From an uncultured Verrucomicrobiae bacterium (lineage in GTDB: Bacteria > Verrucomicrobiota > Verrucomicrobiia > Chthoniobacterales > Terrimicrobiaceae), in contig CAVPOC010000008.1 of the NCBI GenBank assembly GCA_963706955.1, forward strand, positions 832,001 to 896,000: a stretch of 64,000 nt of DNA. The letters are read 5' to 3'. The position numbers and the translations under genes were made by a program. A model generated the notes under the pieces. That model saw only the letters and a program-made list of their open reading frames with translations. It had not been told where the DNA came from and searched no databases. Numbering within the stretch: the first letter of the stretch is position 1; each line of letters begins with the position of its first letter. Below, piece by piece: positions 21,030-57,371 of the stretch.

Positions 21030-21380
21030 TATTTCAGTTATCGCACGTGATTGTAAGTAGCCTTACGCCGTTCTGGGGACAGCAGGTCGCCGCGATGATC
21101 GTGTCGACGGCGACCTGCATGTTTGCAATTCGATTGCTAAAGTCCAATTTAGACCCTTACGCAGCATAGAACGTCGCCAGCCCGCCCGAGAGGCTAGAGC
21201 AATTCTCAGAAGAGTTCAAAAACCGAGCTGGGGCCACGATTTTCGGTAGGTTCGGGGACGCGTATGCTCTCCAGATTGGCCAGCCTTACTATCTGTAGCC
21301 TGCGGCAAATCCGGCTGTTCTGATCAGATCGTTCTAGGCGCGGTTCAATCGGAAAGATACGGTGTGACCATTGACAATTC

Positions 21381-22907
21381 ATGTTTGCACCTGATACATC
21401 GAACGCCTACCTCTTCCTGCCCCCGACTTCTCCTTCAACTCTCGAGTCTTATGCTAGCAAGGAGGAAGCTTGCAGGAGTCGCGCTTCACTCGTCGAATCC
21501 TTTGAGGGTAAACCGAGGCTTTTTGTGCTGACGGACATCGGCAATGAACCAGATGACCAAATGTCGTTGACTCGACTTCTCCTCTACTCGAATGAAATTG
21601 ACCTTGAGGGTCTTGTCGCCACGACTTCGTGCTGGCAAAGAGACAAAGTCAGCCCGGAGATCATCGAGAAGGTTCTTTCAAACTATGGCCGGATTCGCTC
21701 GAATCTCCTTACGCATGCGGAAGGCTTCCCCACCTTGGATTATCTGCTTGCTTTGGTGAAATCGGGTCAGACGGCATACGGCATGACCGCCGTGGGCAAA
21801 GGCAAACTTACACCGGGCGCTGAATTGTTGATTGAGGCAGTAGATAGCAACGATCCTCGACCTCTCTACGTTTCCATCTGGGGTGGACCGAATACCCTGG
21901 CTCAGGCGCTATTTCATGTCCGCGAAACCCGACCGCCTGAGGAAGTGAGGCAATTCGTCGCCAAGCTTCGCATCTATGCGATCTCCGATCAGGATGACTC
22001 CGGGCCGTGGATGCGTCGCGAGTTCGGTGACCTCTTCTATATCGTAAGTCACTCCACCGAAGATGGAGAAGAGTCCAGTTCAGCGACCTGGACCGGGATT
22101 GCGGGCGACAAATACTATCGAAATGCTCCCGGGGCGGATTTTACAACCGTCTCAAACACCTGGTTGGATGAGAATATAAGAAGCAAGGGCTTCCTGGGCG
22201 AGACATATCCTTATTACATTTTCATCATGGAGGGCGACACGCCCTCCTTCCTCGGTCTCTTGAACAACGGCCTCGCCAGCTATCGCAATCCGGGTTGGGG
22301 AGGCTGGGGAGGACGCTATATTTTTCGCCAACCCTTTGGGGAATCGCAGCCGATCTGGACCCAGGGTGGCGACTGCTTCCCGGGTAAGCCCAATTCCCGA
22401 GATACGGTCATTGGTGTGGACGGTCAACCCTATACGTCTGACCAGGCGACGATCTGGCGCTGGCGCAAAGCATTTCAATACGACTTCGCCGCCAGGATGG
22501 ACTGGACTTTAAAGGAGTTCGCAGAGCCAAACCACAACCCCATTGCCGTTGTCAATGGTGACACGACTAAGGATCCAATCTTCATCAAGTCTAAGGTCGG
22601 AGTTCCGGTTTCCTTGTCCGCCCAAGGGAGCAGCGACCCGGATGGTGATAAAATCACTTACAATTGGTTCTATTATGCGGAAGCGGCCTCCGCCATTTCC
22701 AAAGCCGTCTCTCCCGAAGAAATCGTAGGTAAACGAGGGGAAGAATACCTAAATGTCTCACCTAAGGTGAGACTTGAGGGCGATGACTTAGAAACGGTAT
22801 CGGTTGTTCCCCAGGCACCGGGAGTGGCCCATATTATTCTCGCCGTGGAGGATGATGGAGCTCCTAGCTTAACTTCTTACCGGAGAATCATCCTCGAGAT
22901 CGACTGA
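21381..22907 (+). CDS. DUF1593 nucleoside-hydrolase-like (Sde182-type) protein with C-terminal Ig-like domain
   Basis: VLTDIGNEPDDQMSLTRLLLYSNE, WGGPNTLAQAL, ISDQDD, MEGDTPSFL, WGGWGGRY, DFAARMDW, SDPDGD. Confidence 0.88.
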   Translation: MFAPDTSNAYLFLPPTSPSTLESYASKEEACRSRASLVESFEGKPRLFVLTDIGNEPDDQMSLTRLLLYSNEIDLEGLVATTSCWQRDKVSPEIIEKVLSNYGRIRSNLLTHAEGFPTLDYLLALVKSGQTAYGMTAVGKGKLTPGAELLIEAVDSNDPRPLYVSIWGGPNTLAQALFHVRETRPPEEVRQFVAKLRIYAISDQDDSGPWMRREFGDLFYIVSHSTEDGEESSSATWTGIAGDKYYRNAPGADFTTVSNTWLDENIRSKGFLGETYPYYIFIMEGDTPSFLGLLNNGLASYRNPGWGGWGGRYIFRQPFGESQPIWTQGGDCFPGKPNSRDTVIGVDGQPYTSDQATIWRWRKAFQYDFAARMDWTLKEFAEPNHNPIAVVNGDTTKDPIFIKSKVGVPVSLSAQGSSDPDGDKITYNWFYYAEAASAISKAVSPEEIVGKRGEEYLNVSPKVRLEGDDLETVSVVPQAPGVAHIILAVEDDGAPSLTSYRRIILEID

Positions 22908-22963
22908 TCGGAGGAGGGTGGTGCTACCGGTAGTAAGAAATTATGTTGCCAAAAGCAAAGGGT

Positions 22964-23031
22964 TGTGGAGGGTGCGCTTAATGTCAAGCCCCCAACCAAA
23001 TCCACAGGCGCTTGGCACAAGCGCCTCTACA
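22964..23031. repeat. REP doublet, family A (inverted copy of 764-827)
   Basis: AAATCCACAGGCGCTTGGCACAAGCGCCTCTACA is the exact reverse complement of 764-797. Confidence 0.8.
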
Positions 23032-23121
23032 AATTTGCAAATTGATCGCAGCCCTACCCTATTAGTTAACGGGCCTAGGACGAAGTGGGAAGTGGTGCAA
23101 GCTTGGCGTCTTCGAACTGCG

Positions 23122-56224: not shown

Positions 56225-56302
56225 AACCAACGTCCGGCTATGTGTTCGCTGGACCGGGTGTCCGCGGCGAGAGGTTCTTAGTTCGACTCCATGCCAAGAC
56301 AC

Positions 56303-57250
56303 TCACTTGACTGAATCTTTCGTCAGCAATCGTGAACCGGTGGCATGCTCCTTCGGAATTGTATGACCCTCGTTCATCGCGACGACATAGTAAACGGTCC
56401 AGTAACCAATCTCCCACTGCCTCTGCGCTTTCGTTGCCAGAATCGTTCCGTCTTTGATGAACTGGATTGTTTCCGGGAGATCATCCATACCGACGATCAC
56501 GATCTGACCGGCTTTTTTCGCGTTTGTGACAGCACGGGCCGCGCCGATGGGATTGCTGGCGTTGCATCCAAAAATACCTGCAAGGTCGGGATTGGCCTGC
56601 AAAGCATTTTCCGTCAAGGAGACCGCTGTCTCAAGCTCGTCATTGTCTGGCCGTTCGAAGGCGATCTGAATATCGGGATATTCTTTCATAGCGCGTTTGA
56701 AACCCTCAACGCGAGCCACGTGGTTGGGCGCGGTCAAGCTGCCGGAGAGAATTCCCACTTTGCCTTTTCCTCCGATTTTCTCTGCGAGCAATTTCCCGAG
56801 ATCGTAGCCATCCTGTTCATCTTGGCGGTGTCCGACGTAGGGAAATCGGTCGTCGCAAAACGTGTCGAAGGTCATTACGTTGAGTCCAGCTCGCTTGGCC
56901 TCCTCAAGAATCTGCACGTTGGTCGAAGGGTCGAGCGCAGCGACACAGATTGCATCCGGTCTGCGACCGATGGCCGCTTCAATTCTTCTATTCTGGTCGT
57001 CAATATTGGCCTGTGGCGGGGCATCCCAAATCACCTCGACATCGACGCCAAGCTTCTTCAGCTCATCGACGGCAAAGTTTGCTCCATCGTGAACGACGTC
57101 GTACCAAGGATGAATGACCTTGGGGATGTAGATTATCGTCAGCTTCTTAGTGATCGGCTTAATCAGCTCGCGCTGCTCAGCTTGTCCCATGGAAATCTCG
57201 ACAGAGGCAAAGGTGAAAACGATAAGGGCTAGGATCCTGCAAAGGTTCAT
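56303..57250 (-). CDS. Sugar ABC substrate-binding protein
   Basis: Signal peptide; IPKVIHPWY, VMTFD, IVGMDD. Confidence 0.9.
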   Translation of the reverse strand: MNLCRILALIVFTFASVEISMGQAEQRELIKPITKKLTIIYIPKVIHPWYDVVHDGANFAVDELKKLGVDVEVIWDAPPQANIDDQNRRIEAAIGRRPDAICVAALDPSTNVQILEEAKRAGLNVMTFDTFCDDRFPYVGHRQDEQDGYDLGKLLAEKIGGKGKVGILSGSLTAPNHVARVEGFKRAMKEYPDIQIAFERPDNDELETAVSLTENALQANPDLAGIFGCNASNPIGAARAVTNAKKAGQIVIVGMDDLPETIQFIKDGTILATKAQRQWEIGYWTVYYVVAMNEGHTIPKEHATGSRLLTKDSVK

Positions 57251-57310
57251 AATCACGAGTGGAGTGGGGGTGAAATTGGGGTGAATATTGACTAGGGCAA
57301 CGGACAGTCC

Positions 57311-57371
57311 GAAATGATTACAAATCCCGTCAAAGATTCTAGGAAGATCTGATCTTTTCTTTGGACAAATC
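57311..57371 (-). promoter_or_regulatory. Regulon motif upstream of the last ABC operon
   Basis: Minus strand GATTTGTCCAAAGAAAAGATCAGATCTTCCTAG; -10 less clear. Confidence 0.65.

Follow-up and report, generated by a model that had tools for sequence, protein, structure and literature searches.

A conserved promoter motif predicts an AraC-type regulon for apiose use in a Verrucomicrobium

How might a bacterium place uptake and breakdown genes that lie in several separate operons, on both strands, under one control? The question is raised by a 64,000-nucleotide stretch of DNA from an uncultured Verrucomicrobiae bacterium (positions 832001-896000 of contig C8 in genome G000; hereafter, the window), in which one motif recurs upstream of transporter genes and of genes annotated for the use of D-apiose and D-apionate. 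A preceding sequence-only reading had listed seven copies of this motif over about 36 kb and assigned them to an AraC-type regulator encoded at 50307-51264, here called AraC1. Our comparisons indicate that the motif is probably a class II AraC-type operator bound by AraC1, which would activate seven promoters for apiose and apionate uptake and breakdown.

All seven sites of the earlier list (named A to G in Table 1) were found where they had been placed or within 1-2 nt. The full consensus, drawn from 19 sites of the window and seven congeners, is A..GTCC.AAA....GATCAGAT..TYCTAGgC. The core of the motif, GATCAGATNNNNCTAG, is found in exact form at five places in the window (21322+, 33999-, 35927+, 46390+ and 57339-) and at no other place in the assembly (4,155,808 bases in 15 contigs, all scanned), with no exact copy outside the 36-kb locus. 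When up to two mismatches are allowed, the core has seven matches in the window; dinucleotide shuffles gave 1.08 on average, and none of 100 reached seven. We also built a weight matrix of 34 columns from the 19 sites and ran it over the whole genome. The six highest scores (30.8-49.9) belong to six of the listed sites, the next-best score (22.4) was found on contig C3, and the remainder score 18.4 or less, lie inside open reading frames (ORFs) and were taken as chance. The rank of the window sites is partly by construction, because the same sites helped to build the matrix; the informative part of the scan is the gap below them. The match on contig C3 (C3:457678-457705, minus strand, GTCCCAAAAAGTGATCATATTCACCTAG), the best motif-like site outside the window, is located 550 nt upstream of a CUT2 ATP-binding cassette (ABC) operon. 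As an additional regulon member it is unconfirmed: at up to three mismatches it was not found in 12 congeners, four of them with the regulon.

The arrangement of the sites is largely as the sequence-only reading had described it. Every site is intergenic and points at the next gene or operon (7/7). A TAnnnT hexamer follows in six of the seven, starting 20 nt (site E), 21 nt (F and C) or 22 nt (A, B and G) after CTAG, in agreement with the -10-like hexamer that had been reported for six of seven. Among 200,000 random window positions, 3.0% have a TAnnnT starting at +19 to +23, which we take as the chance per site. Metagenomes provided a second control: a scan with the 14-base core returned more than 119 matches, and 80 loci were retrieved, among which L092 alone combines the GTCC box with the -10 spacing. 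The remaining 79, which have no GTCC box and were treated as chance matches, carry TAnnnT at the expected place in three cases (3/79). A sigma-70 consensus scan of positions 33000-52500 identified 8 promoter-like pairs (8.9 expected), none of them at the motif promoters, which would thus lack any -35 consensus themselves. With an inferred start of transcription some 7 nt past TAnnnT, the motif would extend from roughly -63 to -33, with TYCTAG on the -35 position.

The period of about 21 bp that had been proposed for the half-sites was also recovered, for a repeat that proved to be only partial. We compared the 8-mer ending in CTAG with the 8-mers upstream of it at shifts of 10-30 in 12 sites, seven from the window, one from the distant locus L041 and two each from the distant loci L046 and L050 (see below). 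A shift of 21 gives 43 identities out of 96, and the other 20 shifts give between 13 and 30. The information-weighted self-similarity of the matrix peaks at the same shift (11.2, vs 5.5 and 5.7 alongside). In both L050 sites, which are shorter by 1 nt, the peak is at a shift of 20. A GAT or GATC placed 3-7 nt after CTAG was considered as a second box of the proximal half-site; it is present in 4 of the 12 sites and is not robust.

Conservation was analyzed in 41 genomes, namely this genome, 18 other congeners and 22 genomes of other genera. The exact core is present in eight of them, this genome and seven of the 18 congeners, and in none of the 22 genomes of other genera; the reversed pattern, used as a control, has no match in the 41 genomes. 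The congeners contribute 14 further exact cores, all upstream of and co-oriented with orthologues of the window targets (those of sites A, B, C, D and F; Table 1). The flanks of these sites diverge freely across congeners while the motif is kept, so that the phylogenetic footprinting suggested as a check of the sequence-only reading came out in its favor, with conservation at orthologous promoters in 7/18 congeners. An AraC1 orthologue directly follows the ApnL-like lactonase gene in every motif-bearing congener locus, and at E<=1e-40 AraC1 is found in exactly the eight motif-bearing genomes. The distribution of apnO is the same, gene and motif being present in exactly the same 8/41 genomes. 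Judged from these comparisons, the AraC1 gene is the one regulator that travels with the motif. One congener, G004, has two copies of the ApnL-like and AraC1 genes (L029 on contig C29 and L031 on contig C6); both AraC1 copies are 80% identical to AraC1 of the congener G017, and one of them adjoins the third CUT2 system.

More distant relatives of AraC1 were found in three metagenome-assembled genomes (MAGs), and all three loci have recognizable sites. In the Chthoniobacterales MAG (L041), whose AraC shares 63% identity with AraC1 and 52% with AraC2 (the product of a second AraC gene of the locus, treated below), the apnO gene is preceded by ATCGTCCTATAAAAAGATGAAAGGGTTCTAGGC, then 20 nt and TACTAT. 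In the Verrucomicrobiae MAG (L046; 51% identity to AraC1, 38% to AraC2), an operon of apsD, apnO, TIM-barrel, apnL and AraC genes lies behind TTTGTCCAAAACAAAAATAATCGTCTCCTAG, 20 nt and TAAGGT, and there is a second, divergent site. In the Acidobacteria MAG (L050; 37% identity to AraC1), two GTCCAA..GAT..TYCTAG sites are each located 20-21 nt before TATACT and 21-24 nt before ATG. One of these precedes a frameshifted ORF with a DUF5060 and a PF13204 apiosidase-like domain, and the other precedes two PF01261 genes. The apiosidase-like gene, of the GH140 type (L050:1878-4621), is split into overlapping frames (1878-3074 and 2435-4621) and is followed by a TonB-dependent receptor gene. Across the three loci the 28-nt frame of GTCC and TYCTAG is kept (27 nt in L050) and the centre changes. 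In a survey of the phylum, covering 400 other genomes with the top five candidates scored in each, an AraC1-like protein at E<=1e-60 was found in one genome (G292, 40% identity).

AraC1 is a cupin-AraC gene, assembled in two parts (50307-50774 and 50863-51264). Its C-terminal part (50863-51264) matches PF12833 (HTH_18) at 5.9e-22 and PF00165 (HTH_AraC) in two stretches; the Pfam Cupin_2 model scores 22.1 bits, below its cut-off of 27.2. The structure used for comparison was an AlphaFold model of the G017 orthologue (pLDDT 76.6), which matches ToxT, Rns and CsvR over its full length. The N-terminal domain of this model matches the sensor domains of RhaR (5u9e/5u93, TMt 0.69-0.71), AraC (2arc, 0.67) and BgaR, and the C-terminal domain matches DNA-binding domains of the AraC family (TMt 0.77-0.85). 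As predicted by the model, AraC1 has both a C-terminal domain with two helix-turn-helix (HTH) units and an N-terminal cupin-type sensor domain of the AraC/RhaR kind. When 11 family members are aligned, the second HTH (GFTDQSYFDRRFK) is nearly invariant and the first varies.

These properties suggest how such a regulon would work. Two AraC1 subunits would occupy the 21-bp-phased repeats, one on nGTCCnAn and one on nnTYCTAG, as AraC does on araI1/araI2. The TYCTAG end would overlap the -35 position of promoters that lack a -35 of their own, and AraC1 bound there would recruit RNA polymerase. The invariant second HTH would read the invariant GTCC and TYC boxes, and the more variable first HTH may read the lineage-specific centre, which is GATCAGAT in this genus. 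The cupin domain may sense D-apiose, D-apionate or an apioside, and induction would switch on the transporters, the glycoside-processing candidates and the oxidative apiose route. Since AraC1 is the last gene of operon C, induction would also feed back positively.

Several observations weigh against this model. The 21-bp repeat is partial, nGTCCnAn and nnTYCTAG having about half of their positions in common. Site D has no TAnnnT at +19 to +23, only a TGTAAT at +17, and site F would have to function with no GTCC box at the distal end. Across the 41 genomes, gain or loss affects motif, AraC1 and apnO as a block, so their joint presence links the motif to the cluster but not to AraC1 in particular; the two links are separated only by the distant loci L041, L046 and L050. 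The AraC homologue of G292 has no such motif within its 3.9-kb locus. AraC2 is present in G017, G012, G009 and G015 and could bind the same sites there. The inducer may be different too: according to PMC13753588, ApnO enzymes also use D-erythronate and D-ribonate, so the true inducer may not be apiose. Finally, AraC1 of the window is frameshifted as assembled, with one extra A relative to three congeners.

The last of these points was followed up in Logan contigs from four soil and rhizosphere studies, compared with the window over positions 33000-52500. At each of four positions, every contig listed there is one base shorter than the window: 33882/33883 in the CUT1 binding protein gene, 34473 in a gene for a metallo-beta-lactamase-fold protein, 49599 in the ApnL-like gene and 50770/50771 in AraC1. 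The 1-nt insertion at 50770 is missing from the near-identical strains X1, X5 and X9, which come from three other metagenome studies; hence the AraC1 frame may need no repair. All four indels are insertions in the window and none is in a homopolymer. We read them as assembly errors or private lesions of this genome, and on the evidence of the contigs the population carries an intact AraC1. Nor is the regulon specially enriched in split ORFs: overlapping same-strand ORF pairs, a crude proxy, number 368 genome-wide, which corresponds to 3.3 per 37 kb vs 4 in the regulon region.

AraC2, alone or jointly with AraC1, could instead be the main binder, for example with free sugar sensed by one protein and acid or glycoside by the other. 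We consider this unlikely. It is true that G017 has a full-length AraC2 (397 aa) with 53% identity to AraC1 and nearly the same recognition helices, and that AraC2's own promoter has a variant site conserved in five species. However, in the species of the window the sensor domain of AraC2 is lost, yet all sites are kept. The remnant (51592-52217) is without about 500-660 nt of sensor-domain coding that G017 retains, as expected from the earlier description of this second AraC gene as decayed; strains X1 and X6 have a common rearranged form of AraC2. Moreover, the motif occurs in L041 and L046 with a single AraC that is nearer to AraC1 than to AraC2 (63% vs 52% and 51% vs 38%, respectively).

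A repressor operator, bound over the -35 region by AraC1 or by another protein and relieved upon induction, is improbable. Its overlap with the predicted -35 would allow a bound protein to block polymerase, but the site is asymmetric, strictly co-oriented with the gene behind it and at a fixed distance from the -10. Promoters without a -35 consensus of their own fit dependence on an activator, and no gene of a repressor family (LacI, GntR, TetR or similar) is conserved in the cluster. We find it very improbable that an alternative sigma factor uses the motif itself as its promoter, with GTCCAA as the -35 and TYCTAG as the -10. The 16 nt between the two boxes are a normal promoter spacer; however, this spacer contains GATCAGAT, the best-conserved part of the motif. 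Site F is without the GTCC box, there would be no explanation for the -10-like box that starts at +20 to +22 (TATACT at both L050 sites), and no sigma-factor gene is conserved in the cluster. The concern that the motif might be equally common genome-wide, as the end of a miniature inverted-repeat transposable element (MITE) or dispersed repeat without regulatory role, can be dismissed, since the scan of all 4.16 Mb found no exact copy beyond the 36-kb locus, every copy is intergenic and co-oriented rather than scattered regardless of gene orientation, and the sites are conserved at orthologous promoters while their flanks diverge. Activation by AraC1 is the reading that we retain in describing the individual promoters and targets (Table 1).

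Table 1. Predicted AraC1 sites and target units of the window. Unit contents are from Pfam and NCBIfam matches; orthologous sites are given by genome (G) or locus (L).
Feature	Position	Strand	Sequence or content	Orthologous sites
Site F	21322..21337	+	GATCAGATCGTTCTAG; TACGGT 21358-21363; ATG 21381; without upstream GTCC box; target Sde182 nucleoside-hydrolase-like gene	G009 (L027)
Site A	33999..34029	-	ATCGTCCAAAATATAGATCAGATCCTCCTAG; TAACTT starts 22 nt after CTAG; ATG 33964; target CUT1 binding protein	G017, G004
Site B	35911..35942	+	AATCGTCCCAAACTATGATCAGATAGTTCTAG; TACCTT 35964-35969; ATG 35986; target apsD-like gene	G017, G015, G012, G004, G006, metagenome locus L092
Site G, degenerate	41554..41569	+	AATCAGATTATCCCGG; TAGATT starts 22 nt later; target second CUT2 ABC system	G009
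Site C	46375..46405	+	AAAGTGCTAAAATCGGATCAGATTCTTCTAG; TAGTTT 46426-46431; ATG 46468; target apnO-like gene	G017, G015, G012, G009, G016
Site E	51521..51551	+	ATCGTCCAAAAAATACATGCGATCCTTCTAG; TACCGT 51571-51576; ATG 51592; CATGCGAT centre	5 species
Site D	57339..57370	-	ATTTGTCCAAAGAAAAGATCAGATCTTCCTAG; target third CUT2 binding protein	G004 (L031)
Box-1-only element	51362..51376	+	CAATTCGTGCTAAAA; about 160 nt upstream of site E	5 species
Unit F	21381-23256	+	Sde182 nucleoside-hydrolase-like gene (21381-22907); 112-aa ORF (22918-23256)	
Operon A	29901..33964	-	CUT1 ABC binding protein (32667-33964), permeases (31723-32421, 30875-31846), inosine-uridine nucleoside-hydrolase-like (29901-30869)	
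Operon B	35968..41483	+	GFO/IDH/MocA dehydrogenase (apsD-like), DUF2291, ABC ATPase, permease, CUT2 binding protein (40443-41483)	
Unit G	41649-46131	+	Second CUT2 ABC system with ATPase-permease fusion	
Operon C	46468..51264	+	ApnO-like (46468-47313), 3-oxoisoapionate-decarboxylase-like TIM barrel (47382-48221), ApnL-like lactonase (48435-50310), AraC1 (50307-51264)	
Unit E	51592..53617	+	AraC2 remnant (51592-52217); intact acid-sugar-type major facilitator superfamily (MFS) transporter (52286-53617)	
Operon D	53708..57256	-	Third CUT2 ABC: binding protein (56303-57256), ATPase (54716-56302), permease (53708-54693)	

Three of the sites need a revised description. Site E, which had been listed with the decayed AraC gene, is not itself a decayed copy but a variant with its own centre, conserved in five species upstream of the second AraC gene as ATCGTCCrArAAATACATGyGATCATTCTAGGC. 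Of the two sites listed as weaker copies, the one given as 41541-68 is real and is best read as AATCAGATTATCCCGG at 41554-41569 on the plus strand (site G), and the one given as 21321-37 (site F) has the exact core at 21322+ and lacks the upstream GTCC box. The orthologue of site G in G009 is AATAGGATAGTTCTAG, a better copy than that of the window, and a GATAG is present 19-22 nt after the site in window and G009 alike (GATAGC at 19 nt in G009). Site G lies within a perfect palindrome, GGATAAT-CAG-ATTATCC (in the region 41547-41569), whose minus-strand reading, AATCTGATTATCCTAG, points at nothing. The orthologue of site F in G009 is likewise without box 1. At site A, the ATG of the CUT1 binding protein follows CTAG by about 35 nt, which would leave the transcript with almost no leader. 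The target genes show no Shine-Dalgarno-like sequence ahead of their start codons. Site C has no counterpart before apnO in G004 or G006, where apnO directly follows the apsD operon; promoter C would thus be an internal promoter, present in only a part of the genus. The element with box 1 only (CAATTCGTGCTAAAA) may be a distal half-site.

Some features of the targets and their surroundings were recorded along with the sites. The 815-aa protein of unit G in which an ABC ATPase is fused to a CUT2 permease (42719-45166) is full length in G009 (88% identity) and in L041 (60% identity) and is thus a real fusion rather than an assembly join. The permease gene of operon D (53708-54693) is split by a frame change that is absent from G004. 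Between sites A and B, the metallo-beta-lactamase-fold gene and a PAS-domain gene (34167-35568) have no site of their own; G004 is without these two genes, and its sites A and B stand back to back with some 200 bp between them. Unit F and operon A are separated by some 6 kb (23522-29654; ATP-grasp, bestrophin-like, DUF4440 and a 407-aa ORF without family) that the syntenic G017 locus does not have. Directly upstream of the regulon, positions 10108-21029 encode a second putative apiose route, with a split transketolase (13041-14081 and 14081-15019), a CUT2 ABC system, a short-chain dehydrogenase and an FGGY kinase. Adjoining this route are genes for a SorC-type regulator (10108-11127) and a third AraC protein (11464-12285), and the matrix scan found no motif copy before its operon.

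Does the regulon really concern apiose? Plant pectin (rhamnogalacturonan II) and many plant glycosides have apiose as a signature sugar, and bacterial routes for its breakdown were reportedly assigned only in 2018. The ApnO-like protein matches PF16896 at 3.7e-47 and PDB entries 5t57/3c24 with 252 bits, no curated model passed, and proteins 91-98% identical to it are named D-apionate oxidoisomerase by JGI automatic annotation. The TIM-barrel protein (47382-48221) belongs to PF01261; a PDB relative was not found for it, and proteins 90-95% identical are named 3-oxoisoapionate decarboxylase by the same annotation. The two halves of the lactonase score 225.4 and 68.5 bits on the NCBIfam ApnL model NF049900, whose cut-off is 750. 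The closest PDB entries to the CUT2 binding protein of operon B (40443-41483) are 5ibq and 4ry0 (396 bits), one of which probably holds D-apiose. ApnO, OiaC, LerK, EryH and EryI form 'oxidative route 3' in PMC13753588. The apiose label, which rests on annotation and context, also fits the GH140 apiosidase-like motif target in the Acidobacteria locus.

Class II activators of the AraC type on 21-bp direct repeats are a textbook design. AraC binds araI1-araI2 at the Escherichia coli araBAD promoter. Like AraC, AraC1 combines a cupin sensor with a double HTH (in the predicted structure), and its predicted sites, like those at araBAD, are two direct repeats 21 bp apart, the proximal one reaching the predicted -35, in the service of sugar catabolism. 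Unlike at araBAD, the half-sites are unrelated in sequence, the seven promoters that one regulator would serve are spread over 36 kb, AraC1 closes a target operon instead of being divergently transcribed, and the host is a Verrucomicrobium. Repression by looping is hinted at only by the box-1-like element 160 nt upstream of site E. E. coli AraC itself is not close to AraC1, which scores 65 bits on the E. coli AraC model vs a cut-off of 208. XylS at Pm and RhaS at rhaBAD are class II activators of the AraC/XylS family, and the half-sites of RhaS are inverted, not direct. As with XylS and RhaS, the tandem sites described here would abut or overlap a weak -35 and would depend on orientation; they differ from those of RhaS in being direct, and have no sequence similarity to XylS or RhaS sites.

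Described D-apiose and D-apionate clusters (PMC13753588) resemble the predicted gene content of this one in that ApnO, an OiaC-type decarboxylase, apionolactonase and a dehydrogenase are clustered with transporters. Relative to the clusters described there, the predicted regulon adds three CUT2 systems, one CUT1 system, an MFS transporter and two nucleoside-hydrolase-fold proteins. In the passages of that source considered here, regulators of apiose clusters are shown only as 'putative transcriptional regulators' (in grey), with no operator or regulon defined. Our literature search on apiose combined with regulon or operator found no described regulator or operator for apiose routes, and the present regulon would likely be the first one predicted for this plant sugar.

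A broader proposal, which we put forward tentatively and hold to be possible rather than probable, is that AraC1 founds a family of apiose or apioside sensors spanning two phyla (Verrucomicrobiota and Acidobacteriota) with a GTCC-N18-TYCTAG operator. Under this proposal, membership in the regulon would mark the two nucleoside-hydrolase-fold proteins, the CUT1 oligosaccharide importer, the ATPase-permease fusion and the acid-sugar MFS transporter as a system for apioside salvage from plant cell walls, and the nucleoside-hydrolase-fold proteins might be a new kind of apiosidase, in the role that GH140 has in the Acidobacteria locus.

An operator together with a candidate sensor would provide a testable apiose switch in Verrucomicrobia, which are abundant and little studied in soil and rhizosphere, and, in a phylum where few promoters are mapped, a promoter layout. 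It would also support a guilt-by-regulon argument for the function of the nucleoside-hydrolase-fold proteins and transporters. The main use of the predicted regulon would be that it ties proteins without assigned function to apiose use in soil Verrucomicrobia.

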